64,000 nucleotides of DNA from a virus (IMGVR_UViG_3300049844_000277:36520-100519), one strand, 5' to 3'; shown: positions 22,363-52,250, counted from the first letter of the stretch. A program made the numbers and translations. The notes: generated by a model from the sequence alone, not told the origin.

Positions 22363-25300
22363 TTATACAGGCTGATTTTGTTGCGCCATTTGCGCCTTCG
22401 CCTGCTGTCCTTGTTGGTTCTGAAGATCTTCCAGGCGTTGAATGACAACCGCATGCATCACAGCGTCTTCCTTACTTAAGCTATCCAACTGTGAACGCCT
22501 AGAACCAACATCCAGCCCCATGAGCTGCTGCACTATCTGGTCAGCCTGCGCGATGACCGCCTGCTGGTCGTAGTTGAGCCCAGGAGTACCTTGAGCCTGT
22601 AGCTGAACCTGCTGGGACAAGTTATTCTGTAGTTTTCGTAGCTCATTCTGGACGCGCTGATTGTGCCGCGCCTCATCAAGAGTTTCTTGTAGACGCTTCT
22701 CTCGTTCTGCGTCCAAATCAATGTCGAGTCGCTCTAGTATGGTAGTCATTGAGACGTACGAGGGACCCGCTTGCCCGGTAGCCATGCTGAGCAGTAATTG
22801 TTTAGACTCAGTGTCATCGACCATCTTCAAAGGCGTAAGTTTCGCCTCTATCTTCTCCCAGCCAAGATACCGGGACATCTGGTCGCTGTACCACTGTAGT
22901 AGGTCATTCATATCATCCGCGTGCCCTTGCGTTTGATTCTGAATGAGCCGGAGAGTTGCCTCCATGCCTGCTTTAGTTAGTCCACCGTAGAGGAACTCCT
23001 GCGGAATACCTAACGCAGCCATAATGCTCTTCTCAGCTTCTTGAAGCTCACCGAGCGTTAACATCGCCCGTCCATCGCCACCAAGATTGGATACACCAAG
23101 AGCTACTGGTGCCATCATTATGTGTAAGGGGTCACGTCGCCAGCGACGAATATTTTGTTTCATTTCATCTTGCCAACGCGCAAGAGAAATCATTTGCGTA
23201 AAATCTTGCTGTCCGTTTTGTGCGGGATGCAAGATACGCATTGGCACGACGTGCTCCAGCGCGATCGAATTTTTAGTAGCCCCACCCGCGATACAAAACG
23301 TGGAATCCTCCGCGATCTTGAAGTCAATGTATTGTTCCTCTTCCGACTCCTCTACCACGCTCACTCTCGCCGCAAAATAATCTTTCCAGAAAAAGCCACT
23401 CTTGCCGATGGTAATCTCTTCCGCATCCTCCCAATTCCATAGCGCGTAAAGCCGCTCTTGGGACGCACCGCTAACCCGTACGTGGTAACTCGGTCCGTTT
23501 GGGGTAATAACACGCCCATCAGCAAGCGCGTGAATCGGGGTAATGTGCTCACGAATCGTCGCAATACATCCTACGTGAAGGAGCATACGGTAAACATCAT
23601 ACGCAAGGCCCGCACTGGAGGTGGCGAGAGTATCTTGCCCTTCCCGCGTGTGACCATCCGCCTCCCAGAGACCTTTCAAGAATGCGAGCTTTACAGAATC
23701 CGGCGCATGAAATACTTCCGAAGGAACGCGCTTAACGCGCGCGGTTCCCGGAACCATGCCCTTGATGAGAGCCTTCACAATCACATCACACAAGGTAACC
23801 ATGCTACAGTTACCTCTCTGATTGTATCCACCGCACTCCAAGCCAAACTCTCGCCGAATTGCTTCCCGGAGGGGCTCTTCCGTCTTACTGCCCATCGCAA
23901 TCATAACGGTACGCTGGTTACAGGAACCATTTCCAACGTAATGCCCGAGGATATACGCGAAGTCCTCTGTCATCGGGCGCGTCGCGGGGAGGCGTTTTGG
24001 AACGGACCCTTCTTTCAGCTTCCTACGCGCAATCTTCCCAGGGACTCCCTTCACATGCTCACCGGCGCTCTCCGCCTCAAACGCCTGCGCGGAGGGTAAT
24101 GACATCGCGCTGTAAACGTAATTCTCGGTGTTCGCGAAACCGGTGTACTTAGCAACATCTACCTGCTGCGGCTCCGACGGAATTGTCCGGGGGTAGAGGA
24201 TATAATCACCCTTCTCGAACTGTTCCGCGGGACACATCACCTCTTCGTACAAATGCGGATTCTGAAGAATCTCCGACGACGTCTGCTTGTCTTTCGTATC
24301 CGACCGACGTGCGTCGCTTGTCCGTCGAAGGGTAAGGATGGGATGGTGCGGGGAAAATACCCCGCTGAGATGCCGAAGCCCCGAAAGCGTAATACGGCAT
24401 CCGATTTCATCATCCTTCGCATCCCGATACCACTTCTGCTCGACTGGACGCCACCGCCCGAGGTGTGTTCTCACCAAGTCGCCAACACGTACATCATCCG
24501 CGGGCACGAGACCGGTAGACGTCTCAATGAGTGTATCGAGACTGACGCACTCGTTCGCCTTCCTTAGCGTCATGGTGTAGAGGAAGAGCTTGATTGTCGA
24601 CGCAAGCGGAGGAAATCCCCACTGCTGGTCAATACCCGAAGGACTTGGAACCTTGATATGAAAAAGAGCGTCCTTCTCAAAACGAAACGTCTTGTTGTCT
24701 CGAATGTTTTCCAAGAACTCCATAGGCATCGAATTAATAAGATGCTTTGACCCCGATTTAACTTGGTCCTTAACGTCCTGCGGGATGTTATAGTAGTATA
24801 CAGATTGTCCCGTAATCGGATTGTAATCTATATCCATTAGCTTGGGATCCCACCGAATAATATGGACCCGGCTAGCAGCTAGAATCTTACGGTCAACGAC
24901 TGTACCACGCACATCTCGCTTGCAATGCAGGCAGTGGTAGGTGAAAGCCAGCGATTTCAGCTCAAACTTGTAATCAGTGTGCTGAATAGCAACGAGTTGC
25001 TGACAACTAGGACACTTCAGACTACGAACGAACGGCTTATAAATTGATGTAAAATGATTGCCATATATGTGCTTATCGAGCGACGCCATGAGAAGCGCAC
25101 TCTTAATCTTCAAAGTTTTTTCAAAAAGACGGCGATAGTTGCGCCGGAGTGCTTCATTCGATGTTCCGTACTCGAGGTCAGTTACGACGAGCTCTCCAAA
25201 TTTACGCAGAGCCGCGTAAACATGTGCACTATTATACATCAAATATTCGCACCATTTAAAGAGATCTTTTAGCTTTCTTGGTACAAAACCCGTTAGGAAG

Positions 25301-25374
25301 TCATGTGCAGGGTTTGGGTGTGAAGCCGCCCGGTCAAAAACGGACATTGTATCAGTGTTAGGAAGGTCAGCCAT
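22363..25374 (-). CDS. Portal-like protein interrupted by an intein
   Basis: The extein is about 576 aa. N-terminal Zn-ribbon-like CPSCQQ...CLHCKR. The central part reads ...EKSIMAALGIPQEFLYGG.... The long Gln-rich helical C-terminus is reminiscent of podovirus portal barrels. It is the first gene of the large minus-strand block. The assignment is tentative. Confidence 0.45.
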   Translation of the reverse strand: MADLPNTDTMSVFDRAASHPNPAHDFLTGFVPRKLKDLFKWCEYLMYNSAHVYAALRKFGELVVTDLEYGTSNEALRRNYRRLFEKTLKIKSALLMASLDKHIYGNHFTSIYKPFVRSLKCPSCQQLVAIQHTDYKFELKSLAFTYHCLHCKRDVRGTVVDRKILAASRVHIIRWDPKLMDIDYNPITGQSVYYYNIPQDVKDQVKSGSKHLINSMPMEFLENIRDNKTFRFEKDALFHIKVPSPSGIDQQWGFPPLASTIKLFLYTMTLRKANECVSLDTLIETSTGLVPADDVRVGDLVRTHLGRWRPVEQKWYRDAKDDEIGCRITLSGLRHLSGVFSPHHPILTLRRTSDARRSDTKDKQTSSEILQNPHLYEEVMCPAEQFEKGDYILYPRTIPSEPQQVDVAKYTGFANTENYVYSAMSLPSAQAFEAESAGEHVKGVPGKIARRKLKEGSVPKRLPATRPMTEDFAYILGHYVGNGSCNQRTVMIAMGSKTEEPLREAIRREFGLECGGYNQRGNCSMVTLCDVIVKALIKGMVPGTARVKRVPSEVFHAPDSVKLAFLKGLWEADGHTREGQDTLATSSAGLAYDVYRMLLHVGCIATIREHITPIHALADGRVITPNGPSYHVRVSGASQERLYALWNWEDAEEITIGKSGFFWKDYFAARVSVVEESEEEQYIDFKIAEDSTFCIAGGATKNSIALEHVVPMRILHPAQNGQQDFTQMISLARWQDEMKQNIRRWRRDPLHIMMAPVALGVSNLGGDGRAMLTLGELQEAEKSIMAALGIPQEFLYGGLTKAGMEATLRLIQNQTQGHADDMNDLLQWYSDQMSRYLGWEKIEAKLTPLKMVDDTESKQLLLSMATGQAGPSYVSMTTILERLDIDLDAEREKRLQETLDEARHNQRVQNELRKLQNNLSQQVQLQAQGTPGLNYDQQAVIAQADQIVQQLMGLDVGSRRSQLDSLSKEDAVMHAVVIQRLEDLQNQQGQQAKAQMAQQNQPV
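23269..24549 (-). mobile_element. Intein 4 (427 aa, LAGLIDADG type) in the portal-like gene
   Basis: Junctions are TLRKANE|CVSLDTLIETSTGLV... and ...STFCIAGGATKN|SIALEHVVP. Dodecapeptide motifs are ILGHYVGNGS and LKGLWEADGH. Confidence 0.8.
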
Positions 25375-34128: not shown

Positions 34129-34167
34129 CCGCACGAGCTACTCGTGCCCACAACCCGAGGAGCTCTC

Positions 34168-37100
34168 ATGGAGAAGCCCGCAGAAATCTGCAGCGGATGT
34201 CCTCGAGAAATCGAGACAGAGACCCATCCCTACGGTTATGTTGAATCGTGGATTGATTCAAACGCCGAACTCATCATCATAGCGGAAGCTCCTGTCTGCG
34301 ATCGCCACGGTAACGTTCCTAGCTCTTTCGACGATGACAGCGGTAAAATCATTCGAACCGCCGTATCCGAGCTACGTAACTTACCTTCGCACAGTAAGCT
34401 AGCGGTCTCGTATACGTACGCAGTACTCTGTACAAGCAACCAGGGCGACAAAGACCCCGAAAAAGCCGTACTGCAACGGTGCCGTACGCTGCTCCAAGCT
34501 GACTTACGTCGCGCAAACAAGAACGCCGTCCTGCTGGTAATGGGTATGTCTGCCCTTCGCGCACTAGAAATAAAAGCCGCGAAGTTGAAGGACATGCAGG
34601 GGCGATTACTCCAAAAGCAGAAAATTGGAGAAGGTGATGACGCTCCGATATTCGATGTCGTCGTAACCGTCTCGACAAAACAGTTGTTCGCGATGCCGGG
34701 AATCTACACGACGTTCGTAGCGGACCTGCGACGAGCTGCGGACGCTGCGAGCGCAGGTGGATTAACACACGTTACCCCACTCGAAAAACTAACCGAAAAA
34801 TACGTAATCCCGAAAACAATCGAAGAAGTACGCCAAATCTGTCGCGAAATACTGAATTATCAAGAAGGTAAAGTATCTGCAGATAACTGGCCTATCTCTG
34901 TAGACACCGAGACAAACACCAAGTTTCCACACCGAGAAAACTTGAAAGTATTGGCGGTGTCCTTCGCATGGGCGGAGGGTAAAGCTACTGCAATTCCATT
35001 AGAGCACCCCACTACACCCTACGCGTACCAAGACGCGATACCGTACGTACGCGAAGTCTTAGCGAGCAAGAAGCCGAAGTTCCTTCATAATGCTAAGTTC
35101 GACCTTAAAGTCTTCATGAAAGCGGGCTGGCCGATTAACGGGTTCGCTTGGGATAGCATGCTAGGGGAACATGCTCTCGAAGAAGATAAAAAGGGACAGT
35201 ACGGATTAAAGCAGTTGACCCGTACTTTCTTCCCGGAATTCGCGACATACGCCGACTCTCTTCAAGAAATGCTCACGCACGAAGAGGGCGACTCGCAGCT
35301 CGACAACCTGAGGAAAGCGCCAAAAGCTTCAACTTCGAAAGATGGGGGATTTGAAAGTATCCCACTTCCCACGCTATTGCTTTATGCGGCAGTCGATGCA
35401 GATATGACACGGCGGCTAGTGTTACTGCAGGAAAAAAGAATTACCGACGAGCAGAACAGAGTAATCGTAGAAACGAATATAACGAAGAGAGAGCAGGCGC
35501 TGGCGATTTCGGCGAGGAAGAAAATACGGCTGAGAATTGCGCCGCTACATAGTGAGACGGAGATGTTGAAGAAGTACATGGTGCTCTACCCCGTCCCAGA
35601 ACTCTGTTCCGCTGATAAGCCGGTAAGACAACTAGTACTGAACAACGTATTCCCCGTTACCCCAGCTCTCGCGAGAATGGAGTTTAAGGGCATACGGATA
35701 GACAGACCGTACCTAACTACGTTGCGTGAAGCGTTGGGAAAAGTCGTCACAGAAACCGCTGCAGAGCTACAGGATATGGCGGGCAGAGAGATAACTCTCA
35801 ATAGTCCGGCAGAGATAGCTGAAATCCTGTTCAACAGCGGGTTTATACATCCAACAACTCACGCCCCCACGACTTATCCCCTCACAGGCATCGGTAAGAC
35901 AAAAACGGGACAGATACAAACCACCGAGAAAGTGATGCAGTACTTGGTGGCGAAGTATCAGTGCCCCTTTGCAGCTAAAAAACTAATCTACGCCAAGGCA
36001 TATAAAGCGAAAAATACGTTCTGTCAGAATGTGTGGGATCTCTCGGAGCTCGACGGGTATCTACACACGAACTACAACCAGCACGGCACAAATTCGGGTA
36101 GACTGTCCTGTGTCGCGGGAGAAACCGTACTAGATACTAATTACGGAAAAATCGAGATACAGAATCTCGATCTGGAGAAGATGCCGGGGATTACCATCCA
36201 GACCCACGAACTCCGCGAACAACCGATTCTACGTAAAATAGAAAAAGGCATTGAAGAAATGTTCGAGGTCGAACTCGAAGACGGGCGCACCATCACCGTG
36301 ACTAAAAAACATCGCTTCTTGACGCCGACGGGGTGGAAACGACTCGAGGAACTGTCAGAAAATGCCGAAATACTCTGCGCCGCCTCCGTGGGTAGTGGAC
36401 CAAATATGCGACTCGTTACAACCCGGATAAAAAGCATACGTCCCGTAGGTCCTAAGAAAGTCTGGGACCTCACAGTAGCGGTCGATCACTCTTACATCGC
36501 CCACGGATTTGTTAACAAAAATTCCAACGATGAAAACATGCAAAACATCCCCAAGAAATTGGCGGGTGTTAACATTAAGAAAGTGTTCCTCCCGGACGAT
36601 GATTCGTATGTCTTCGTCAACGCTGATGCGAAGGGTGCCGAAGTACGAATCCTAACCGCCTACTGCCGAGACCAAGCGCTCATACAATCGCTCAACGCGG
36701 GGCAGGACACGCATTGTTTCATCGCGTCCAAGATTGTTGAAATCGTACGTCAGAGTCCTGGTGCAACGGCGGTTCTCGGAAGCATGAATCTAAGCGATGA
36801 GTATCCTCTGACGTACGAAGACTTCGCGGCTAGAGACAAGCTAAAAGAAACCAATAGTAAGTACGGGGCGATGCTCGACAAATTCAGAACCGCTGTCAAA
36901 CGCGTAGTGTTCGGTATTCTGTACGGCGCCGGTCCTCAGAAAATTGCGGAAACTATTGGTATCAGTCTAGAGCAAGCACAACAGCTCATTCACACTCTGT
37001 TCGCTTTGTTTCCGTCCATCAAGACGTACATGGCGCAGACAAAGTGGGAACTACAACAATTTAATTTAGTCGAAACGTTCTTCGGTAGACGCCGTAGATT

Positions 37101-37527
37101 TAGTGTATCGGGAGCGCCGAAGTATCAAATAGGGAGAGCTGAACGTCAGACAGTTAATTTTAAAATCCAAAGCACAAGCTCTGATATCGTAATGGGACGA
37201 TTACTAGCAATCGAAGAACCTCTCAAAGATTTGGGAGGTAGACTTCTATTGACAGTGCACGACAGCCTTGGGTTTCAAATCAAGAAAAAATATATCCGAC
37301 AGCTACCTGATTTCATTTATACGTATTTGGAGAAGGGTGCAGCAGACGCCCATCCATGGCTCCCAGTCGCATTTAAATGGGACTACGAAGTTGGGTCATC
37401 ATACGGCGAACTCAAATCACTGGAATCCTACCTTGCCAACACGAAAATAGAGGAATACTCGAACGATGCCTACGTCGCCGAGGCTTTCACAGAAGAAGAC
37501 GCAAGAACCTCCCTCTCCGAACCCTGA
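34168..37527 (+). CDS. polA: Family-A DNA polymerase with N-terminal UDG-family-4-like domain and 3'-5' exonuclease domain, interrupted by a mini-intein
   Basis: UDG-like: LIIIAEAPVCDRHGNVPSSFDDDSGKII. Exo I/II/III: SVDTETN, HNAKFDLKVF, YAAVDADMT. Pol motif A: VFVNADAKGAEVRIL; motif B: RTAVKRVVFGILYGAG; motif C: LTVHDSLGF. ATG 34168 follows GAGGAG; the track ORF begins at GTG 34144. Confidence 0.9.
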   Translation: MEKPAEICSGCPREIETETHPYGYVESWIDSNAELIIIAEAPVCDRHGNVPSSFDDDSGKIIRTAVSELRNLPSHSKLAVSYTYAVLCTSNQGDKDPEKAVLQRCRTLLQADLRRANKNAVLLVMGMSALRALEIKAAKLKDMQGRLLQKQKIGEGDDAPIFDVVVTVSTKQLFAMPGIYTTFVADLRRAADAASAGGLTHVTPLEKLTEKYVIPKTIEEVRQICREILNYQEGKVSADNWPISVDTETNTKFPHRENLKVLAVSFAWAEGKATAIPLEHPTTPYAYQDAIPYVREVLASKKPKFLHNAKFDLKVFMKAGWPINGFAWDSMLGEHALEEDKKGQYGLKQLTRTFFPEFATYADSLQEMLTHEEGDSQLDNLRKAPKASTSKDGGFESIPLPTLLLYAAVDADMTRRLVLLQEKRITDEQNRVIVETNITKREQALAISARKKIRLRIAPLHSETEMLKKYMVLYPVPELCSADKPVRQLVLNNVFPVTPALARMEFKGIRIDRPYLTTLREALGKVVTETAAELQDMAGREITLNSPAEIAEILFNSGFIHPTTHAPTTYPLTGIGKTKTGQIQTTEKVMQYLVAKYQCPFAAKKLIYAKAYKAKNTFCQNVWDLSELDGYLHTNYNQHGTNSGRLSCVAGETVLDTNYGKIEIQNLDLEKMPGITIQTHELREQPILRKIEKGIEEMFEVELEDGRTITVTKKHRFLTPTGWKRLEELSENAEILCAASVGSGPNMRLVTTRIKSIRPVGPKKVWDLTVAVDHSYIAHGFVNKNSNDENMQNIPKKLAGVNIKKVFLPDDDSYVFVNADAKGAEVRILTAYCRDQALIQSLNAGQDTHCFIASKIVEIVRQSPGATAVLGSMNLSDEYPLTYEDFAARDKLKETNSKYGAMLDKFRTAVKRVVFGILYGAGPQKIAETIGISLEQAQQLIHTLFALFPSIKTYMAQTKWELQQFNLVETFFGRRRRFSVSGAPKYQIGRAERQTVNFKIQSTSSDIVMGRLLAIEEPLKDLGGRLLLTVHDSLGFQIKKKYIRQLPDFIYTYLEKGAADAHPWLPVAFKWDYEVGSSYGELKSLESYLANTKIEEYSNDAYVAEAFTEEDARTSLSEP
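36109..36522 (+). mobile_element. Intein 5 (138-aa mini-intein, no endonuclease domain) in DNA polymerase
   Basis: Junctions are TNSGRLS|CVAGETVLDTNYGKI... and ...HSYIAHGFVNKN|SNDENMQNIPK. The spliced sequence restores the PolA (T/S)GRLSS....QNIP motif. Confidence 0.8.
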
Positions 37528-38297: not shown

Positions 38298-38311
38298 CCT
38301 GTAGATACGTA

Positions 38312-38413
38312 AAATCTTTGTTCCAGTACATCTGGAGTCAGCGTAGCGCTGACATGCTTCCCAGAGCTCTTAGTTTGGTAGCCTAGCTAACAAATATAAG
38401 GTCAATGGCCGCC
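38312..38413 (+). repeat. Copy A of a ~100-nt block-conserved repeat containing a GTCAGCG-TAG-CGCTGAC hairpin
   Basis: Blocks shared with copy B: ATCTTT, GGAGTCAGCGTAG(C/T)GCTGACAT, TTAG, AGCCTAGCT, AAGGTCA, GGCCGCC. Confidence 0.7.
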
Positions 38414-38480
38414 GGGGAAAAATGAACTCCCTGAACCCCACCGAGCTCGAGCAAACAATAAATATATAGTAGAACATAGA

Positions 38481-38590
38481 AAGATCTTTCCTGCCCGGTA
38501 CCATTTCGGAGTCAGCGTAGTGCTGACATATGGCCCGATGTTAGCGCGAAGCCTAGCTTCAAGCTAAGAGAAGGTCATTATGGGCCGCCT
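38481..38590 (+). repeat. Copy B of the block-conserved repeat
   Basis: Same ordered blocks as copy A. The single stem difference (C to T) preserves pairing as G-U. Confidence 0.7.
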
Positions 38591-38793
38591 CCGCCTCAAG
38601 GGCAATATCCTTAAGTATGTGGCGCCTATATTGGACATTCCGCGGAATCATAGAACTAAGAGGAAAGACGTAGGGAGCGTAGGGATTCGAGCTGTAAACA
38701 CAGCGCCCGCGTAGTGCGGGCAGCCGTAAGCTGTTCAGATAAGCTATGAGATAAGCTTGAAATCAACCATATCCTCACTGAATGAGGAATCCC

Positions 38794-41212: not shown

Positions 41213-42496
41213 ATGAGCAATACCGCGCAAAACAGCGTAGCCACCACAGAAAGTTATTGGGATAAGTACGGGATTCCTAGAGTAACACTTCACGAAGCCC
41301 TTGCACAAATTGAACTCTCCATTATCTACAATCAAACAAGAGGAGTTTTTTGTTTAATCTCAGAAGCTGGAGAAGGAAAATCGCAAGGAATTCACCAACT
41401 AGCTCGAAAACACCGAAGGCGTGTGGTGGACATCCGAACATCGCAATTTTCTATGATTGGCGCAGGTGTTCCCCAGAGAGCAGACGAAACAGGGCACTTC
41501 AAAATCGCCATCCCAAATGATTACCCGAAACCGGGAGAAAAGTGCCTACTAGTATTCGATGAAATCAACCAAGGGCAACAACACGCCGTAGCGCTATTTT
41601 TCAAACTATTGGAAGATCGAGGAATCTACGACTACACACTCCCCAACGATTGCATCATCGTTGCTTTGATGAACCCCTCGACCGCGAACTACTCAGTCAC
41701 TAAAATTGAAACTAATTCAGCTTTTAACAGACGACTACAAAAACTCTACGTATACAACACTTTCTCCGATTGGAAGAAGCACGCACAAACAAACGACTTC
41801 CACTACACAGATGGGCTTCAGAAGCCCTGCCATCCGATGGTTGTACGGTTGCTCACAGCTACTCCCGCCATGCTGTATACCGCCAAGGATAGAGACGGGA
41901 ATAAGCAGTATGCCTGTCCCGCAACCTGGCAGACCGTATCTCTGTCGCTCTACAACCTCGCCGATGCGGGCGTGGACCTCACAAGTGAGCGAGCGGAGAA
42001 TCGAATCGCCGCGTCTATCAATATCGTCAACGCGCGGATGCTCGTGGAGTTCATCAAGAACAACGAGATACTCATCGGCCCGGAAGAAGTTCTGTTCAAG
42101 TACAAGCCGAAGAGCAAGCTTCGAGAGCGAGTGCTCGAAATACAAAAGGAGCCCGGCGGTACGTACACGCAGCTCGTAGAAGATGTCGCGCAATACATCT
42201 TCCGCGAGAGACCGGAAGCCGAAGTCATCGCGCCCAACCTCGTTCAGTTCTGGCACGATATGCCGGTCGAACAAGCGCAGCCGTTCTACCAAATGCTAGA
42301 TGCTGCCTGTCAGGCACACGGCGGTATCAAGGAGCCCAAGAACGTTCAGTACATGCAGGCGCTCACCACCGCGAATCGTCAGTATCCGCTGTGGAAAGAA
42401 ATCAACGACAGAATCAACCGCATTCACGACGAGGTCGAGAAGAAGATTCATGGGCGAGGGGTCGGGAAAGACCCCATGCTCAGTGCTCAAATGTAG
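41213..42496 (+). CDS. AAA (MoxR/dynein-related-like) ATPase
   Basis: Walker A reads LISEAGEGKSQG. Walker B reads CLLVFDEINQG. Also VALMNPS...FNRRL. Confidence 0.65.
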   Translation: MSNTAQNSVATTESYWDKYGIPRVTLHEALAQIELSIIYNQTRGVFCLISEAGEGKSQGIHQLARKHRRRVVDIRTSQFSMIGAGVPQRADETGHFKIAIPNDYPKPGEKCLLVFDEINQGQQHAVALFFKLLEDRGIYDYTLPNDCIIVALMNPSTANYSVTKIETNSAFNRRLQKLYVYNTFSDWKKHAQTNDFHYTDGLQKPCHPMVVRLLTATPAMLYTAKDRDGNKQYACPATWQTVSLSLYNLADAGVDLTSERAENRIAASINIVNARMLVEFIKNNEILIGPEEVLFKYKPKSKLRERVLEIQKEPGGTYTQLVEDVAQYIFRERPEAEVIAPNLVQFWHDMPVEQAQPFYQMLDAACQAHGGIKEPKNVQYMQALTTANRQYPLWKEINDRINRIHDEVEKKIHGRGVGKDPMLSAQM

Positions 42497-44251: not shown

Positions 44252-45946
44252 ATGTTGGGAAGTGAGCCAGCATACTTCTTAAAGGATATCCAAAAAATGT
44301 CAAACCAGCCTGAACAAGAAAATGCACTCCAGAAATCGATGGTTTTCTGGGTGTCCCGCCGAGGAGCCTCTAACTACTGGGCCTCGGTCGTGAATGGAAT
44401 GAATAAGAGGTTCTCTAACGACGAAGGAACAATGTCGGTGCAGCTCACAGAGAACTGGAAATATATCCTCACCTGCCATCTTCCAGCGTTCGAATCGTGG
44501 TCGCCGAGAATGCGACTACTTGCTCTCGTTCACGAATGCGCTCACGTAGTTCTTCAGCACATTCCCCGGCTGTTCAAGATGTTGGCCAATTGTACAGACC
44601 CGTTCGTACGCACAGCCATCACATCGACGTTCAACTTCGCAGCAGACTTCGCGGCGAATGACGCAATCGTTCGACTTGAAGACGGATTCACAGAAGCGCA
44701 CAAAGCCTTCATGCACGTCAGTCCAGACGGAAAGCCGATTCCTCTCTCCAAAGAAGAAGAGGAGAAACTTCCCGGTGAATGGCCATTTCTTTTGCCAGAA
44801 GAATTTGGACTACCTCGTGGAAAGACAATGGAAGAGTACTTCGTGCTCATCCTCAAGGACCTCCCGAAGTTCAAACAACACGTCGAGGAGATGATGAAAA
44901 ACCTCGAACGTATTCTGAGTGAAATGGGGGAAGACTCCGAAGGAGAAGGAGAGGGAGAATCAGAGGATGGAAGTGGCGGCCAGGGAAAATCTCCCTCCCG
45001 TCGAAACATTCCACCTAAAGGGATTCCCGGCATTCCCGACGAAATCGTCAAGCACGCTCTCAACTCACCAGAGACCTTCGAGATGTTGCAGAAGGCCTTT
45101 GATAAGATTTCCAGTAAAGCACACAAGCAGTGGAACGAAAAAGCAAAGGAGATGACACCTGAGGAAGCAATCTCTGCGGGCAATAAGCTCAAGAAGCACG
45201 CGCAGACGATGGTCAGGGCCGCGAATGACCGCGTAAAGAGAGACCGCGGATTCATGCCCGGCGGAGTCCAGAAGATAATTGACGCGCTGATGGAGCCGGA
45301 CCAGATTCCCTGGGATTCAATTCTTCGAGACATCATTCACGGAGCAATAAGCGCTCGCGTTCAAGAGGAGATGGTCTCTCCGAATCTGTCTCTCATCAAC
45401 GAAGACTACTTGGAGCCGTGGCCTGGGCAAACATTGGAATTTGGCTTCAACATCACCTGGATGACCGATACCTCTGGTTCGATGGGTGATAGTGAATACG
45501 CGCGGGCGTGTAACTGCATGAACTCGCTGCTTGCGCAGAACAAGTTCGTATCCGTCACATACTGCGAGTGTGACGCCATCATGCAAAAGGAGGTGAAAGT
45601 CACAAACATCGAACCGCTCACAGAGGAATACTTGAGCGAGCTCCGTACACGCCGAGGATATGGAGGAACTGTCTATACGCCGTTCTTCAAGCGCGTAATG
45701 GGTGCGGATGAACCTCGGGATTGGATTGATGGCGCACCACGACTAGAGGATGCGCATCCCAAACCGGACTTAATGGTAATCTGCACGGATGGTGGCGTTC
45801 GTCTCATGGGAGAATGCTTCCCGAAGTATCGGCCAGAATGTCCCATCATCTGGTTGTTGATGCCAGGCTGCCATGCTACGACCGGAATGGATGATGTCGC
45901 GCCGGACCGGTTGATTCAGATGTATAAAATGCGGGAGGAGGAGTAG
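44252..45946 (+). CDS. HExxH metallopeptidase-like (DUF2201_N-type) plus VWA-like domain protein
   Basis: LALVHECAHVVLQH (HExxH). MIDAS-like WMTDTSGSMGD. GYGGTVYTPFF and LMVICTDGG. An acidic linker lies between the domains. Alternative start at ATG 44297. Confidence 0.65.
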   Translation: MLGSEPAYFLKDIQKMSNQPEQENALQKSMVFWVSRRGASNYWASVVNGMNKRFSNDEGTMSVQLTENWKYILTCHLPAFESWSPRMRLLALVHECAHVVLQHIPRLFKMLANCTDPFVRTAITSTFNFAADFAANDAIVRLEDGFTEAHKAFMHVSPDGKPIPLSKEEEEKLPGEWPFLLPEEFGLPRGKTMEEYFVLILKDLPKFKQHVEEMMKNLERILSEMGEDSEGEGEGESEDGSGGQGKSPSRRNIPPKGIPGIPDEIVKHALNSPETFEMLQKAFDKISSKAHKQWNEKAKEMTPEEAISAGNKLKKHAQTMVRAANDRVKRDRGFMPGGVQKIIDALMEPDQIPWDSILRDIIHGAISARVQEEMVSPNLSLINEDYLEPWPGQTLEFGFNITWMTDTSGSMGDSEYARACNCMNSLLAQNKFVSVTYCECDAIMQKEVKVTNIEPLTEEYLSELRTRRGYGGTVYTPFFKRVMGADEPRDWIDGAPRLEDAHPKPDLMVICTDGGVRLMGECFPKYRPECPIIWLLMPGCHATTGMDDVAPDRLIQMYKMREEE

Positions 45947-45958
45947 AATAGGCGCACT

Positions 45959-46264
45959 ATGCCAACCGTCACTCCTCCAATAACTGATGACTCGGATTGC
46001 AGGGGCTACAAAGTACGATTCAACGAATCTTGGGAAGGGTCTATCTACAAAGCGAACCGTCATTGCTGGATGGCTACGCTAACCAAGAAACAGAAGAATC
46101 GCGCGCTTGTCATTCGTCCCGGAAAAAATTTTCCAAATCCTACGGAAGCGAAGAAATGGTGTGAAGAACAATTTGAACTAGAAGAAAAATCAGCGGTCCC
46201 ATACGAACAAAAACTTCGAGACGTACTCGTCGCAATCCGTAAACAAATAGAAGAAACCCTATAA
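45959..46264 (+). CDS. Hypothetical small protein
   Basis: ORF of 101 aa, tightly spaced in the operon. Confidence 0.45.
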   Translation: MPTVTPPITDDSDCRGYKVRFNESWEGSIYKANRHCWMATLTKKQKNRALVIRPGKNFPNPTEAKKWCEEQFELEEKSAVPYEQKLRDVLVAIRKQIEETL

Positions 46265-46265
46265 C

Positions 46266-46652
46266 ATGTCGCTATACAACTCGCTTTTCGGCCAAGAAAC
46301 TCTGGCCCCAGTTCTCCTAAACGCGCTGAACCTGTCTCGAGAAACCGTCGGAAGATATCGAGACTGTTATCTGGCGAAGGGGGAAGACTTAGGAATGCGC
46401 ATCATCGTATTCACGCGAAACGGTGGCGGTAATCGTGAAGACTACGAAGAAGTAACTCGCTATCTTCAAGCACATCCCCTGTACGTTCGCGACTGGGATG
46501 AAGAGTACGATTGTACTTACGCGTCGTACGAGTTTCGCGTACCAGAGTCGCTAGCCAAGGCCTTGGAAAAATTTGATGAGGAAGAACTCATGCCGCAGTA
46601 CGCACCGATGGAAAAATTCAAAGCGGTAATTGAGAAGCTCAACAGTCAGTAA
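46266..46652 (+). CDS. Hypothetical protein (128 aa)
   Basis: The ORF starts 2 nt after the upstream stop and is followed by a strong terminator. Confidence 0.5.
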   Translation: MSLYNSLFGQETLAPVLLNALNLSRETVGRYRDCYLAKGEDLGMRIIVFTRNGGGNREDYEEVTRYLQAHPLYVRDWDEEYDCTYASYEFRVPESLAKALEKFDEEELMPQYAPMEKFKAVIEKLNSQ

Positions 46653-46682
46653 CAGTCCTCCTCCCCCTCCCCTTCCCCCTCT

Positions 46683-46721
46683 AGGGCTTCTACGTACGCG
46701 TAGGAGCCCTTTCTTTTTCTT
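46683..46721 (+). terminator. Rho-independent terminator
   Basis: AGGGCTTCTACG-TACG-CGTAGGAGCCCT forms a 12-bp stem with one G-U pair, followed by TTCTTTTTCTT. Confidence 0.7.
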
Positions 46722-46728
46722 AGGTACC

Positions 46729-47331
46729 ATGGACCTCTACTGTCTTCGTGTTCGTAGGAACATCGCTGGACGTAAATTTCCCTTCGATAGAGTGTATCTC
46801 GCGAAATACGGGGATCACGTTATATTCAAAAGATTATTCAGGTATGCCTTCATCCTTCCCGTTGAAGGCGTACTAAAGGAAACGCTGTACTGTCTCCCCA
46901 TTGAAGACAGCATGACGCACGCATTCGACAGAGTAGAAACGCCTGAGAAAATTCCAGATGTAGAGTGGAAGACGCTCATCGACTCGACGGACTGGGTACT
47001 CGCGGTACCGATTCTATCGAAGTACGTGACCGCTAACATGCCGAGATATATTATTGCCAAGTCCACGGTGCCCCGAAGAGACAAGAAAAACTCTAACGCG
47101 TGCGCAAACCCGTTTCCAAACATGACGTACTTGCAGACACCCGAGCAAAACATTCGGCCAATATGTGTCGCATGTCCGAACTTTATCCAGCATCAGAACG
47201 GTCACTGCGAACTTGGAGATAAGCTCTGCTACGACTCTCTTTCCCTGGGAATCCGAAATCACTTTGAAGAAGGCATGATGGTTCCTCCTGCCCCGGAAAA
47301 AGAACAAGTGACTGAGGAGGGGAACGACTAA
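46729..47331 (+). CDS. Hypothetical Cys-containing protein, first gene of the RT operon
   Basis: ATG at 46729 (MDLYCLRVRR...) lies just after the terminator; the track ORF start 46630 would read through the hairpin. Contains CVACPNFIQHQNGHCELGDKLC. TAATG overlap with the RT start. Confidence 0.5.
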   Translation: MDLYCLRVRRNIAGRKFPFDRVYLAKYGDHVIFKRLFRYAFILPVEGVLKETLYCLPIEDSMTHAFDRVETPEKIPDVEWKTLIDSTDWVLAVPILSKYVTANMPRYIIAKSTVPRRDKKNSNACANPFPNMTYLQTPEQNIRPICVACPNFIQHQNGHCELGDKLCYDSLSLGIRNHFEEGMMVPPAPEKEQVTEEGND

Positions 47332-48467
47332 TGCCTGTCTACAAACAAAATTTCCTTGAGCGAATTGAAGTACGCGAGCCACTCATCAAAGGCGTACCCC
47401 TTATCGTCGATGACTGGAGTCTGGCATTCCAGCTAGGTTTTACGGGTAAGACCGCGTGGTACATCATCCATGAACGCGCCAGTATGTACCGGGAGTTCAT
47501 GCTGAAAAAGAAGTCTGGGGGTCTCCGTAGAACGTTTGATCCAACTAACCTCCTGCGCATTTTCCAGAAACAACTACGCGCACGCATTCTGTTCCCGCTC
47601 GTATCTCGCCTAGGTCCGCACGTAGCCGCGTATCAGGTCGGTAAGAGCACGCTTGATGCGGCAAACTGGCACCTGCGCGAGTGTAAAATCTGCGACGACA
47701 CGACCCGTCCCGGCACGAGTCCTGTGAAACATGAGTGTCCTCGACGGGGTGTGAAGTTCAAAATGGATTTGAAGGATTTCTTTCTATCGACTCGTCGGTC
47801 CTGGATACGACAGTATTTCCACGAAGTCGTCGGATACAATCACTACGTCTCGTCGATTCTGGGGCACCTACTGACGACGAGTTATAAAGATGAGCGGAGA
47901 AAAGACAGGAACGGCGTTCCGCCAGGCGCATTAACAGCTGGCGATATTTGTAATCTCATCTGTGATTGGAAGATAGATCAACCGCTTATGGCGGCACTAC
48001 CCACAGGCTGGAAGTACACACGGTACGCCGATGACTTGTATTTCTCGTACGACGCACCCCTTCCATCAAAAGAAGTAAACAAGATAATCCGACTAGCCTC
48101 GGACACCATCACCGGCTCCGGTTACCGGGTAAATTGGAAAAAGCTCCAAGTGCAACACTGGAGCCGGCCCCAGCGAGTACTAGGTATCAATATCAACAGA
48201 AAACTAAACATCCCTGCGACTGAGTACCGTCGAATGCACATGATTCTGTATAAAGCAAAGAAGCATGGATTCCAGGCGCAACTTACGTGGGCAAAGAAAG
48301 CCGATGTTCCGGAACTTCACGCCTGGATAACCGGCAAACTGAATTACTACGCGCGATTCGCACCAGATAAAACCAATAAACTACAACGGCTTTATCAAGA
48401 AGCGAAGGACGCGAATCCAAGCGAAGAGGCCGCGGTGTTCAACTTTGGAACCGGTGCAAACCCATGA
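47331..48467 (+). CDS. Reverse transcriptase, retron/Abi-like
   Basis: YREFMLKKKSGGLRRTFDP (RT1/2), AAYQVGKSTLDAANWH (NAxxH-like), KMDLKDFFLST (RT3), GVPPGALTAGDICN (RT4), YTRYADDLYFSY (YADD, RT5), RVLGININ (RT7, VTG-like). There is a Cys-containing ~25-aa insertion between NAxxH and RT3. GAGGAGG RBS. Confidence 0.8.
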   Translation: MPVYKQNFLERIEVREPLIKGVPLIVDDWSLAFQLGFTGKTAWYIIHERASMYREFMLKKKSGGLRRTFDPTNLLRIFQKQLRARILFPLVSRLGPHVAAYQVGKSTLDAANWHLRECKICDDTTRPGTSPVKHECPRRGVKFKMDLKDFFLSTRRSWIRQYFHEVVGYNHYVSSILGHLLTTSYKDERRKDRNGVPPGALTAGDICNLICDWKIDQPLMAALPTGWKYTRYADDLYFSYDAPLPSKEVNKIIRLASDTITGSGYRVNWKKLQVQHWSRPQRVLGININRKLNIPATEYRRMHMILYKAKKHGFQAQLTWAKKADVPELHAWITGKLNYYARFAPDKTNKLQRLYQEAKDANPSEEAAVFNFGTGANP

Positions 48468-49840
48468 ACATGTACACGGTTTGCCACGCGTACGATGCAC
48501 GTAACGCAAGGTCAGATGCACTTGCGCTTTTGTTCAATACTCCCGACACTAAAAAAATAGCAGGAATCCCTGAGCTCTCCGAAATATATCCCAACGGATA
48601 TTTCGTCACTAGTATCTCCGACATAAAATCAGGAGACCCCTACAGACACTCATACTACCAAAGACAAAGATACTCCCACAATCCTGCTCCTTACACGATG
48701 GTATCCATTTTCGCTACGTACCCCCGTCCAGATGAGGCAAAACTAAACAGCGAAGATATTTGCTTCTTCGTAAATGGAAAAACATATCAGGTTAATCTAC
48801 GTACCCGCTACAACCACTGCCTGTCGTTGTTCAAAGCGGTAGGTTGTGCGCAATGCCCTGATAACGGGCTCCCCTGCGTATCCCAGGAAGCCGAAGAGCT
48901 AATCGAGCTTGATAAGAAACTCACCGACGCCGAAAGGCCTGTGTATTTCAACGAGACAGCGTTCTCGAACAATACCGAGTTCTTGAACGATATCGACGAC
49001 ATAGAGTTCTTAAAGTACCTACAAAGAAAGCACCCGTCCCTCGGTGACTTCAAACTTGTCAAACCCGGATCAACAAGTCCACGTTCGTTCCATAGTACTT
49101 TCCGCCCGTACTGGGACCACGACTTTTCGCTAGTTCCACGTAATGAAAAAGAAAAGTCAGACGCGGCATCTCGAGCAGCACGGACACGTAAGTTCAAGAA
49201 GGAAGAATGTCCTCAGTGCGTCATCAAAGATAGCTGCTCGAATGCATCCCGGTGTGATGGTAGATATCCGCCACAGGAGACGATTATCAAGCAGGCGAAT
49301 GCGGAGCTTACTGCGGCGATAGCCGGGTCGATACTTCCCGAGTGGGCGATATGGGAAGTTGCTCGAGGCGCGGGACAAACAGCAAAACATTCCAGGTGGC
49401 ACATCATGCTCACCGGAATACTATTAGACCGATATGGAAATGGGTCTCTCCGCGCTACAGTTCACCGCGCAAAAACAGACATCGATGAGTACAAAAGACT
49501 CAATACGTACGAAGAAATCGCTGAAGTATTTAACTTAGCGAAAACGGAAAAAGATGTGCCGCCCGAGCGTGGACCACTGAGGAGCTTTGAGCTCCGCGCA
49601 GTTTGGTGGTTGGCGCTTCTTGCTCGCTCAACCGCTCGAAGGGCTACAGGTTGGGGAGGTTCCCGGTACGTCGTAAGTATCGGTGTAGATGAGAAGACCG
49701 GTATCTCGCTCGAATGGACAAACGGGCGAGATATATCCCACTGGCACAGCAACAATCTACGTAAGATTGAAGATGTATCGAGGTGCCTCACGCCGAATAG
49801 TTTGTACGGCGTAGCTAAGGAACAATTCGTTCAGCGGTAG
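48464..49840 (+). CDS. Hypothetical protein (458 aa), third gene of the RT operon
   Basis: ATGA overlap with the RT stop. Several Cys pairs (CAQCPDNGLPC, CPQCVIKDSCSNASRC). No family recognised. Confidence 0.55.
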   Translation: MNMYTVCHAYDARNARSDALALLFNTPDTKKIAGIPELSEIYPNGYFVTSISDIKSGDPYRHSYYQRQRYSHNPAPYTMVSIFATYPRPDEAKLNSEDICFFVNGKTYQVNLRTRYNHCLSLFKAVGCAQCPDNGLPCVSQEAEELIELDKKLTDAERPVYFNETAFSNNTEFLNDIDDIEFLKYLQRKHPSLGDFKLVKPGSTSPRSFHSTFRPYWDHDFSLVPRNEKEKSDAASRAARTRKFKKEECPQCVIKDSCSNASRCDGRYPPQETIIKQANAELTAAIAGSILPEWAIWEVARGAGQTAKHSRWHIMLTGILLDRYGNGSLRATVHRAKTDIDEYKRLNTYEEIAEVFNLAKTEKDVPPERGPLRSFELRAVWWLALLARSTARRATGWGGSRYVVSIGVDEKTGISLEWTNGRDISHWHSNNLRKIEDVSRCLTPNSLYGVAKEQFVQR

Positions 49841-50918
49841 GACACACTTCCTGGTACGCAAGGAAGGCTTCTGTATCTGCGAGGAGGGCGGCCGACTGAG
49901 CTTCGTCGGCTGCTCTCTTCGCTGTCGCCGCTTCGGCGGCAGCCGTATCTGCGTCTTTCTTTTTTTGGCTCGTAATGGACACTTCACCGAGCTTATTAGT
50001 ACAGGTGAGCGCCATATCGCTTCTAAACGCTTCGAGGACTGACTGTCCGTTCGTAACTTCATCCACGACCGCTGCATCCATGGCAGTCTTAGCGGCGTCC
50101 CAGATGGCTTTCGCGCTGGTGTAGGCGCTCTTTGCGGCGTCGTAGGTAGCATTATCTGCGGTACCTGCTCGATAGGCGTCGGCCACACTAACGAACGTAG
50201 TAACTGCGTTGGTGTAGGTAACCGACGCTGAAATAAAGTTGTTGACGCTTGCCCGGTACGTGCTAATAGCCGTGTTCCCGGAGTTGAAGCGCCCCAGCAT
50301 CGCGCTACACTTCTGGCTCTCACTTAACGCCGTGACGTTGTCTTCGTTCGCCGCTGAAGCTGCGGCTGCGGTTACGGTAGCGTCCGTCGTTGCTTCGGCT
50401 GCCGTCACTTTGCTAGCCAGGTACTCGGCGTGCGCCGTAGTGTACTCGGACTCCCGTTCCGCAACGATGCCCGCGGTGAGGGGCATTGAAATCGTCGAGT
50501 AGTCTGGCGGCGAGGTAAGAGGCGCCAAAAACTGCTCGTTGTAGGTATGCCAATCGGCAATCAGATTGTCGACACGTTGTTGAATGAGAAGCTTGGCGCT
50601 CGAGGCCGTAGCAATGTCATCATAAACAACCGTGAAGTTCGTGCTGAGATAAAGGGTCTGATTTAAGCCGACCGCCGTTTCTCGGCCTAAGGACAGCGTC
50701 GTCAAATCAGCTACGTTAGCGACGCGAAGAAAAGTATCTGACTTTGGATCAACTGAGTTAACTATCTGATGGACAAAAATATTTGACGTGTACGGAGAAG
50801 GCCCGTATAGGGGGAGATCTCCTGCCTCGACCGAGTCGATGCTCGAATCAATCTTGAAGCGTTGAATACTAGCTTCGTCGAGAAATACAGTGCAACGTTG
50901 TCCAAGAGTGGTAGGCAT
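49815..50918 (-). CDS. Ala/Thr-rich fibre-like or coiled-coil hypothetical protein
   Basis: ORF of 367 aa. The C-terminal two thirds are Ala/Thr/Ser-rich and helical. The 3' end overlaps the convergent 48464..49840 gene by 26 nt. Confidence 0.45.
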   Translation of the reverse strand: MPTTLGQRCTVFLDEASIQRFKIDSSIDSVEAGDLPLYGPSPYTSNIFVHQIVNSVDPKSDTFLRVANVADLTTLSLGRETAVGLNQTLYLSTNFTVVYDDIATASSAKLLIQQRVDNLIADWHTYNEQFLAPLTSPPDYSTISMPLTAGIVAERESEYTTAHAEYLASKVTAAEATTDATVTAAAASAANEDNVTALSESQKCSAMLGRFNSGNTAISTYRASVNNFISASVTYTNAVTTFVSVADAYRAGTADNATYDAAKSAYTSAKAIWDAAKTAMDAAVVDEVTNGQSVLEAFRSDMALTCTNKLGEVSITSQKKKDADTAAAEAATAKRAADEAQSAALLADTEAFLAYQEVCPTAERIVP

Positions 50919-51427: not shown

Positions 51428-51937
51428 TTGATGACGACAAACTCAGATTATTGGCTGAGATGGGCAAGCGCCCAAGGAGCTACGATGCCGGCACACTCCC
51501 GAGGTCAAAGTCAAAGTCAAATCCAAAACCCAAATCTGGACGTGTTTCTAGAAGGTGACGTATATACGACGAATTGTCGATGCTCTGATTGTGGGAACAA
51601 TCACAGGAAAACAGAAAGAAAAGAATATTACTGGGCCACGGTCTCGAACTGCCACCGTGAATTAGCTCGAGCAGCAGAGGTTTACACGGCGGTCTGGGAG
51701 CCGAACACGGCGGGGTCTACCGTCGCAAAGCAGCTCATCGTTCCGCTGACCATCGGCCTCGCGGAGCTTGAAGTTCATCCTGAAAAATTTGAGAGCATCG
51801 CTCGTCGAAGCGTGTGTGCTCCGTACGGGGGATATCAATCCTTCGTGCATTTCATCCAAGGCTATCTGCAAGCGTGCATCGAGTACCCTGACGCCACCGT
51901 GCGGGTATCTACGCATAATTGGGGGCTACGTGATTGA
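51428..51937 (+). CDS. Hypothetical protein (169 aa)
   Basis: ORF with CRCSDCGN. It contains a (GTCAAA)x3 microsatellite near 51503-51520. Confidence 0.45.
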   Translation: MMTTNSDYWLRWASAQGATMPAHSRGQSQSQIQNPNLDVFLEGDVYTTNCRCSDCGNNHRKTERKEYYWATVSNCHRELARAAEVYTAVWEPNTAGSTVAKQLIVPLTIGLAELEVHPEKFESIARRSVCAPYGGYQSFVHFIQGYLQACIEYPDATVRVSTHNWGLRD

Positions 51938-52250
51938 TCTAATCGAGCAGCTAACTCGGCAGAAGGAGTTCTCTCTTAGGACCTTTGGGCCCGGCGATTC
52001 ACGCGAGAGATTCGCTGGATTGCGGGAGCATATTGAGAAGGAACTGAGAGAGCTGGAGTCCGCCCCGTACGACTTGGAAGAGTGGATAGACATCATCTTG
52101 TTGGCGCTGGACGGCGCATGGAGGACCGGCGCAAGTCCAGCAGAGATAATCGCAATGCTCCAATACAAGCAACGAAAGAACGAAGAAAGAAAGTGGCCCC
52201 GCTGGCAAGACGTTTCGTTTGAGCGAGCGATGGAACACATCAAGGACTAA
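51930..52250 (+). CDS. MazG-like / DUF550-type nucleotide pyrophosphohydrolase
   Basis: LREHIEKELRELESAPYDLEEWIDIILLALDGAWRTGASPAEIIAML. GTG 51930 follows GGGGG and overlaps the upstream stop by 8 nt; the track ORF begins at 51768. Confidence 0.4.
   Translation: MIDLIEQLTRQKEFSLRTFGPGDSRERFAGLREHIEKELRELESAPYDLEEWIDIILLALDGAWRTGASPAEIIAMLQYKQRKNEERKWPRWQDVSFERAMEHIKD

Follow-up and report, generated by a model that had tools for sequence, protein, structure and literature searches.

Retron reverse transcriptases (RTs) are known as bacterial anti-phage devices, sometimes carried as prophage cargo, with their template RNA alongside. What does such an enzyme do when it belongs to the core genome of a phage, and which RNA does it copy? 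We examined these questions in a 64,000-nt stretch of one strand of a viral genome (IMGVR_UViG_3300049844_000277:36520-100519; hereafter, the window), in which an RT gene is enclosed by two partner genes, ORF1 and ORF3. The RT is of the retron branch, and a widespread clade of large (~140-200 kb) uncultured phages has inherited it stably as a core gene, coupled to two proteins whose folds are unknown. Neither the fold nor the branch of the RT is new; what is new is its pair of partners, its place in a phage core, its zinc knuckle and the lack of a template beside it, and a full-text search of the literature found no description of the phage RT trio. We tentatively read the trio as a phage-core retron derivative, in which a complex of the RT, ORF1 and ORF3 would make short DNA, to the benefit of the phage, from a phage RNA provided in trans, and we put this reading a little short of an even chance.

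A retron-branch reverse transcriptase and its two partners

The three genes lie on the plus strand and overlap end to end. ORF1 (46729-47331; 200 aa counted from its ATG) runs into the RT gene (47331-48467; 378 aa) through a TAATG overlap of stop and start codons (junction gacTAATGcct), and the RT gene runs into ORF3 (48464-49840; 458 aa) through ATGA (junction cccATGAac). This is the layout described by a first-pass annotation of the locus, which a model had made without database searches. The same annotation saw a strong terminator upstream and a convergent gene downstream, and both are present: a terminator-like hairpin with a 12-bp stem, and a minus-strand gene (49815-50918) sharing 26 nt with the end of ORF3. 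Its placement of the operon "among replication genes" fits one side, occupied by a PrimPol/VapE replication block; the other side is a terminase/MoxR/DUF2201 block, and the trio sits at the junction of the two.

The RT matches Pfam RVT_1 at 2.4e-14 (54 bits; cut-off 29.6) and has 767 homologues in a large protein collection. All 25 of its best PADLOC models were retron RTs, RT_XIII first (1.6e-46, 157 bits), followed by III-A, XI and XII. When a profile of the RT family was compared with all PDB sequences, the retron RTs Ec67 (1.3e-28), Ec86 (1.2e-25), Kva2, Ec78, Ec83 and Eco8 led, and group II intron RTs and DRT2 ranked below them at 1e-6 or worse (DRT2, E = 5e-4). Because retron RTs lead both the hidden Markov model (HMM) ranking and the PDB profile ranking, the RT is assigned by its sequence to the retron branch, and not to the abortive infection/unknown group (Abi/UG), diversity-generating retroelement (DGR) or intron branches. 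NCBIfam retron models matched at ~1e-33, below their curated full-length cut-offs, while the group II intron model TIGR04416 reached 1.8e-9 (37 bits vs a cut-off of 300) and Drt3a an E value of 0.061. Classification with RT-clade HMMs, which the first-pass annotation had proposed, thus returned nothing but retron models among the PADLOC top 25. Of its label "retron/Abi-like", the retron half is upheld by the PADLOC, PDB and NCBIfam rankings, and the Abi half is not: models for AbiA, AbiK, Abi-P2 and DRT are absent from the top PADLOC matches. Its exclusion of group II intron RTs agrees with our searches, and that of DGR RTs is consistent with them. No Avd-like or DGR RT family match was found with Pfam, PADLOC, PHROGs or NCBIfam, in searches that did not include one dedicated to template and variable repeats (TR/VR) with A-to-N substitutions, and neither a group II intron RNA (Rfam, window) nor an extra RT domain (Pfam) was detected. 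A role as the phage replicase was ruled out, the phage having a family A DNA polymerase, an exonuclease, PrimPol and the VapE helicase.

The catalytic motifs were inspected in a family alignment of 26 relatives (A3), and their frequencies were counted over 114 full-length relatives. The motifs quoted in the first-pass annotation are present and conserved across A3. These include KKKSGGLRR..DP; DAANWH, in which H114 is invariant and which takes the family form (D/H/N)AxxH with the H alone invariant; and motif A, KMDLKDFF, with a nearly invariant D146. The catalytic YADD of motif C (48024-48035, +; residues 232-235, within YTRYADD) has nearly invariant Y232, D234 and D235. The catalytic residues, whose degeneration the annotation had named as grounds for abandoning its view, are retained as Y[AS]DD in 108 of the 114 relatives (101 YADD and 7 YSDD), with one small subclade (P0035-P0038) as the exception, and the window RT is apparently catalytically intact, judged by these residues. 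RVLGININ, described earlier as VTG-like, is likewise present and conserved, with L284 and G285 invariant, but its family form is LG[IV] and not VTG: LG[IV] replaces VTG in every family member in which the motif can be located (88/114), whereas NAxxH and VTG are both present in the type XIII retron RTs aligned with them.

Between (N/D)AxxH and motif A, the RT fingers carry a zinc-knuckle-like insertion (47682-47738, +) of the form C118-x2-C121 ... H134-x-C136. The earlier observation of a cysteine-bearing insertion at this place proved sound: all four residues are invariant in A3, and CxxC...HxC occurs in 109 of the 114 relatives. Bacterial type XIII RTs lack the knuckle, as do L035 and L049, the most divergent RTs of the phage clade. 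One subclade (P0040-P0102; A3 columns ~130-160) has ~30 extra residues inside the knuckle together with a second conserved CxxC, a pattern that suggests a second metal site.

Both partner proteins also carry conserved cysteines. ORF1 combines an N-terminal alpha/beta domain, modeled by AlphaFold2 (AF2) with a predicted local distance difference test (pLDDT) score of ~80-89, with a C-terminal cluster CxxCP...C...C in which C146, C149, C160 and C167 are invariant. ORF3 has two invariant Cys4 clusters, C119/C128-x2-C131/C138 and C249-x2-C252-x5-C258-x5-C264, and its C-terminal half is confidently folded (pLDDT 85-95). An exhaustive profile search gathered 229 ORF3 clusters, all of 400-580 aa, and no known domain was found in the members scanned. 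As the first-pass annotation had stated, Pfam, PADLOC, PHROGs and NCBIfam revealed no known effector, Avd, maturase or endonuclease domain in either partner, nor was any toxin, nuclease, TIR, protease or transmembrane domain recognizable. Structure prediction of both proteins, which it had recommended, yielded the AF2 models, and neither ORF1 nor ORF3 has a detectable sequence or fold relative outside its own family. Comparison of the two also ruled out that they are paralogues.

A sub-threshold match to Pfam DDE_Tnp_1_6 was seen over an FKKxxCxxCxxxxxC knuckle in residues 230-263 of ORF3 (E = 0.09) and residues 237-273 of P0198 (E = 0.009); CxxCP motifs are also found in cluster 1 of ORF3 and in ORF1. 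The match hints at a transposase-type cysteine knuckle in ORF3, a hint that is noteworthy because the SWIM partner of type XIII retrons is thought to be transposase-derived.

Inheritance of the trio and its relation to known retrons

To place the trio among its relatives, we drew locus contexts from Logan, ENA, NCBI and IMG/VR and detected ORF1 and ORF3 in them with iterated HMMs. The closest RT homologues lie on phage contigs of 140-197 kb. ORF1-RT-ORF3 occurs, in this one order, in every phage-clade locus that reaches far enough (~50 loci; RT identity 29-78%), and a syntenic block [-330 aa][DUF2201][ORF1][RT][ORF3][-350 aa][-123 aa] recurs across ~45 loci, with [-220 aa] as its further continuation. 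The first-pass annotation had allowed that the flanking ORFs might be non-conserved noise; both are in fact conserved and co-inherited with the RT. The RT is the best conserved of the three: at an RT identity of 72-78%, ORF1 retains ~52-58% and ORF3 ~40%. The RT and the terminase (TerL) of the same contigs show paired identities (RT/TerL, %) of 74/83, 71/83, 49/68, 39/55, 36/54 and 34/51. Since the two drop together, these comparisons identify the trio as a vertically inherited core module of the phage clade rather than cargo, and its standing as a syntenic core module shifts the likely biology from cargo defence to a function for the phage.

Variation is concentrated just upstream, in a hotspot between the DUF2201 gene and ORF1 that holds zero to six unrelated small ORFs depending on the relative. 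This cassette spans 45959-46652 (+) in the window, 3402-5257 in L002 and 4299-5286 in L003. Two trio-bearing contigs of the phage clade were binned in archaeal metagenome-assembled genomes, L057 (Archaeoglobales; identical to an IMG/VR phage contig) and L058 (Bathyarchaeia), which is either mis-binning or a clue to the host.

Type XIII retrons comprise an RT of clade 10, a SWIM/winged-helix protein (cluster 114) and a HEAT/ARM-repeat protein; they occur mainly in Myxococcota, Planctomycetota and Verrucomicrobiota and are mostly inherited vertically (Mestre et al. 2020, PMC7736814). A search of bacterial and archaeal genomes, one per species, placed the nearest cellular RT homologues, 27-31% identical, in these same three phyla. 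They are genuine type XIII systems (HEAT-ARM_XIII 1e-187, SWIM_XIII 3e-176, RT_XIII 4e-161), and the SWIM_XIII control proteins of L110, L119 and L085 scored 1e-167 to 1e-176. The phage trio resembles them in having an RT with two accessory genes and mostly vertical inheritance, and RT_XIII is the best model for its RT. The differences are extensive, however. The phage RT scores 157 bits against RT_XIII, compared with 535 bits for a true type XIII member; it lacks the ~200-aa N-terminal extension, has LG[IV] in place of VTG and (D/H)AxxH in place of NAxxH, and carries the added CxxC...HxC knuckle. ORF1 and ORF3 have no PADLOC match at E <=1, including HEAT-ARM_XIII and SWIM_XIII, and their AF2 models are not alpha-solenoids, unlike the HEAT/ARM partner. 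No homologue of ORF1 or ORF3 was detected by the iterated HMMs in 78 type XIII loci. In type XIII, a gap of ~270 nt ahead of the RT houses the non-coding RNA (ncRNA), whose a1/a2 arms measure 21-29 nt; the phage trio has neither an ncRNA before the RT nor such arms. Its carrier, moreover, is a phage genome in which it behaves as a core gene. Membership in type XIII was therefore rejected, as both partners, the N-terminal extension, VTG and the ncRNA position all fail.

Classical retrons (Ec86/Eco1, Ec67/Eco2, Ec78/Eco7, Kva2) align with the phage RT through palm and fingers (1e-28 to 1e-15). In contrast to them, the trio is neither fused to nor accompanied by a known effector (Toprim, NDT, PtuAB, HEPN) and shows no sign of defence-island membership. 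With neither a known retron partner nor an adjacent msr-msd, the RT merits the name "orphan" that it had been given. Retron RT genes do occur in phages and prophages, for example in Klebsiella phage 4LV2017. Such cargo RTs (Klebsiella phage 4LV2017, Staphylococcus jumbo phages) lie within a phage genome, as the window RT does, but they are 26-29% identical to it over a partial length and are not flanked by ORF1 and ORF3, being lineage-specific cargo as opposed to a syntenic core module. Another group of viral RTs (L052 4632-5981 and L053 4617-5909), ~23-24% identical to the window RT, has a Cys-rich N-terminal extension and VTG and is without ORF1 and ORF3; it represents a separate phage-borne retron-like lineage.

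The subclade with ruined catalytic residues, P0035-P0038, is 57-59% identical to the window RT and has W.YTR-HEGS, -HNDS or -HEDS for YADD. Its genes (L154 10001-11104; L171 4319-5470; the P0035 contig) are found outside phages of this clade, as lone genes, without ORF1 and ORF3, in surroundings that resemble defence islands of bacteria or temperate elements. Their neighbors are type I and type III-like restriction-modification, SMODS, DndB, AAA ATPase and serine recombinase genes, and in one case the dead RT adjoins host housekeeping genes. It looks as if bacteria or temperate elements captured a dead copy of the phage enzyme.

The search for a template RNA

The only non-coding DNA upstream of the operon is 76 nt long (46653-46728). 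It holds the C-rich tract (46653-46682) and the 12-bp-stem hairpin (46683-46710, +; T-rich tail) reported in the first-pass annotation, with all 12 pairs present, and the 96-nt hairpin stretch folds at -25.9 kcal/mol (z = -3.3). A conserved structured RNA, which that annotation had suggested seeking around 46.6-46.8 kb, did not emerge: neither the hairpin nor its sequence is shared by the upstream regions of L002, L007, L008, L003 and L010. The element was rejected as a retron ncRNA, as it has a terminator-like stem with a T tail and is not conserved even at 72-78% RT identity; it is a local intrinsic terminator closing the variable small-ORF cassette upstream. More distant relatives leave 0-20 nt between the DUF2201 gene and ORF1, and no conserved non-coding element adjoins the operon in any of the relatives compared. 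An RNA hidden within the coding sequence found no support either, synonymous-codon identity being flat (~0.45-0.55) over the trio in a five-genome comparison of low power. Across the whole window, Rfam gave a tRNA-Asn alone above the gathering threshold, and relaxed Rfam searches of 45.9-50.1 kb and 37.4-38.9 kb gave no match.

Scanning the window for non-coding gaps located a tandem array ~8 kb upstream of the RT gene on the same strand, next to the terminase gene. The array fills a 496-nt gap (38298-38793) that separates the exonuclease gene from the convergent terminase gene, with repeats spaced ~174 nt apart. Two complete units of ~180-190 nt (38303-38508 and 38477-38682, +) are candidate template RNAs. 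A third, degenerate unit (38679-38777, +) lies at the terminase-proximal end; it contains a GCCCGCG-UAG-UGCGGGC hairpin and is recognized by a covariance model built from the 5' 100 nt of the units (21.9 bits, E = 6e-5), and equivalent last units are found in L137, L138 and L140. Relatives with an RT identity of at least 49% have the same array, made up of three to seven units of ~145-200 nt, downstream of the terminase: L137 (4784-5459), L138 (4752-5440), L140 (5100-5976), L141 (~4980-6590) and L158. Repeats of other kinds occupy the same place in L143 (4580-5200), where the repeat is GCAGTACC, with four copies of (A/T)AGCAGTACC each followed by a long near-perfect hairpin, and in L142 (4605-4975), which has three copies of TTAGCGGCAT.

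Each unit begins with a 5' arm, followed by an invariant unpaired G (C next) and stem-loop 1 (SL1; CCGG-loop-CCGG). SL2 is a 7-bp stem capped by a UAG or UAA triloop, and SL3 a long stem with an apical AGCCUAGCU. After SL3 come a variable region of 60-80 nt, a conserved GAACAAAG (complement, 5'-CTTTGTTC...) and a 3' arm whose sequence complements its own unit's 5' arm. RNAalifold, unaided, predicted the long-range terminal helix and the three stem-loops, and units folded singly give the same architecture. Over 12 units, 96.4% of cells are paired, compared with 81.1% in shuffles (0/500 reach the observed value) and 41-47% with the partners slid; compensatory changes occur at 14 of 23 pairs, including 6 of the 7 in the terminal helix. 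No Rfam family corresponds to the units. Coding repeats or small genes were rejected as the main explanation, as the spacing is not a multiple of three and no frame is open throughout; orthologous units, in addition, differ by indels in the variable part, and paired positions covary.

By analogy, the layout resembles the general plan of a retron msr-msd RNA. As in classical retron ncRNAs, the arms are inverted repeats, one G stays unpaired at the inner edge of the 5' arm, the stem-loops on the 5' side are conserved and the 3' part varies; as in type XIII RNA, an unpaired G comes after the terminal helix and before a stem topped by a 3-nt loop. Unlike a classical retron RNA, the candidate template is non-adjacent and may exist in several tandem copies. 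We regard the array as the leading candidate for the template of the RT, a link that we infer and hold to be possible though doubtful.

The distribution of the hairpins speaks for this link. A search of 2.9 million IMG/VR viral contigs gave 17 occurrences of a strict SL2 motif, spread over 16 contigs; a complementary stem accompanies four of them, in contigs with the RT trio only. One further instance lies in L154 (13826-13906, -), where the same hairpin with its flanks scores 25.5 bits, 2.7 kb from a horizontally acquired homologue of the RT. The other L154 genes are unrelated to the window phage, and the 5' leader that contains the SL2-like hairpin belongs to an operon of a small gene and a recombinase.

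Possible roles of the module and its genome context

Under the reading of the trio as a phage-core retron derivative, ORF1, the RT and ORF3 would form a single metal-bound complex. That the three proteins act as one is inferred from their sequences, because start and stop codons overlap, the genes are strictly co-inherited and all three proteins have conserved Cys clusters. During infection, the complex would bind a phage-encoded structured RNA and copy part of it into a short DNA resembling multicopy single-stranded DNA (msDNA). Since nothing non-coding is conserved beside the operon, the template would be supplied in trans, the best candidates being the tandem units at 38.30-38.78 kb. The invariant unpaired G after the 5' arm would serve as the priming (branch) nucleotide and the conserved GAACAAAG before the 3' arm as the first stretch copied, while the variable middle could give each unit a different DNA product. 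The product would serve the phage, for example in counter-defence, DNA metabolism or packaging, and not in killing the host.

Several points weigh against this proposal. The units are far from the RT gene and adjoin the terminase gene, and co-occurrence of the array and the RT within one phage clade could follow from plain shared ancestry. More distant RT-carrying phages have different repeats after the terminase. The covariance model matches the arrays alone and nothing beside RT genes, and no direct link of the units to type XIII ncRNAs was found, the model having no match in the 78 type XIII loci. The pairing of RT and hairpin in L154 is a single case, not seen in L171. Gene overlap, co-inheritance and Cys clusters form the whole basis on which a complex is postulated, the clusters could bind either zinc or an Fe-S cluster, and the role may after all be host killing, whether abortive or exclusion.

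The last of these points leads to a phage-carried defence or superinfection-exclusion system of the retron type, in which the RT with an RNA-DNA product would restrain a toxic ORF1 and/or ORF3 until a competing phage triggers it. All of the nearest characterized relatives are anti-phage retrons, the RT with two accessory genes mirrors the type XIII layout, retron RTs are present in phages and prophages (4LV2017 as above; P2-like prophages), and the dead RT copies in bacterial defence islands place the family in an arms race. Phage defence cargo, however, is normally patchy and sits in variable hotspots, whereas the trio is universal, keeps its synteny and diverges together with the terminase across RT identities of 29-78%; here, the truly variable cassette lies just upstream of the trio and is not the trio itself. 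The partners have none of the effector-type domains sought, and there is no adjacent ncRNA, so we consider such a defence role unlikely. Somewhat less likely still is an RT without a dedicated structured template, one that would make template-free, protein-primed DNA or copy ordinary phage or host RNAs (mRNA, tRNA), with ORF1 or ORF3 as primer or processivity partner. AbiK and Abi-P2 make DNA by protein priming without a template, no relative has an ncRNA beside the operon, and LG[IV] for VTG together with the missing N-terminal extension might alter template recognition. Yet the RT falls by sequence in the retron branch and not in Abi/UG, the retron RTs examined to date work on a specific msr-msd RNA, and a retron-like RNA array exists in the same genomes.

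Independently of these alternatives, the tandem units may be unconnected with the RT, whose real template would then lie in the ~100 kb outside the window. The units might act as small RNAs of the phage, as terminators or anti-terminators of transcription by its RNA polymerase (RNAP), or as a region recognized during packaging. We take such independence to be quite possible, if clearly below an even chance. It would account for the position of the array, which in all relatives adjoins the terminase gene where convergent genes meet, and for the failure of the covariance model to find a match near any RT gene, and the L154 hairpin in the leader of an operon fits a regulatory element. However, a multi-branch fold of 190 nt with a covarying terminal helix to close it goes beyond a terminator, and sites recognized by proteins at the DNA level would not keep their complementarity while the sequence changes; the paired-stem motif, moreover, is confined to RT-bearing contigs in IMG/VR.

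The phage-core reading, should it hold, can be extended to a clade that runs a retron of its own, although we think this extension improbable. The core complex would then reverse-transcribe several msr-msd-like RNAs, with shared recognition stem-loops and differing templates, into distinct small DNAs for the phage, such as decoys or guides against host immunity, or primers, and bacteria would have answered by capturing dead RT copies in defence islands. Should the RT indeed make DNA for the phage, reverse transcription would be put to a new use in a DNA phage, and DNA-writing tools would gain a new supply of compact RT/ncRNA pairs, perhaps with templates multiplexed by nature. The locus offers concrete objects for testing: the three proteins, an RNA unit with a predicted priming G, and the dead RT copies in defence islands.

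Around the trio, the immediate upstream neighbor conserved in the syntenic block (~45 loci) is the DUF2201 gene (44252-45946, +), whose product has an HExxH metallopeptidase-like N-domain and a VWA-like domain (DUF2201_N 8e-7, DUF2201 3.5e-5). In distant relatives, it directly abuts ORF1, giving an apparent four-gene operon. A MoxR-like AAA ATPase (41213-42496, +; phrog_1297 ATPase, 2.2e-35) belongs to the same conserved neighborhood, and its L004 orthologue has a faint AAA_5 match. MoxR/VWA pairs are metal-insertion chaperones in other systems, and the ATPase is likely the partner of the DUF2201/VWA protein; the two are conserved upstream of a trio whose proteins all bear Cys clusters.

Elsewhere in the window, the phage encodes endonuclease VII alongside the exonuclease, PrimPol and VapE helicase, as well as an SNF2 helicase, a PD-(D/E)XK nuclease and a ParB protein. 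No nucleotide match to the window was found in the phage collection. By terminase, the closest cultured relatives are Salmonella phage Arash and three Vibrio phages (~30% identity), and this RT is absent from all four. Just upstream of the PrimPol and VapE genes lies a MazZ-like dATP/dGTP pyrophosphohydrolase (51768-52250, +; PF04447, 6e-17), of a family that we take to be the MazZ enzyme of phages with 2-aminoadenine genomes. The phage also has its own multisubunit RNAP, which, like the family A DNA polymerase, is encoded by the phages of its clade, and scans for sigma-70 promoters are therefore uninformative. One component is a fused beta/beta' protein of 2836 aa (12377-20887, -) with an inorganic-pyrophosphatase-like domain, interrupted by LAGLIDADG/intein segments, and a second piece (9086-10885, -) is a separate protein with Rpb1 domain 5. 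The genome is intein-rich overall: the family A DNA polymerase (34144-37527, +) contains an intein, and a 1003-aa protein (22363-25374, -) combines Hint and LAGLIDADG domains.

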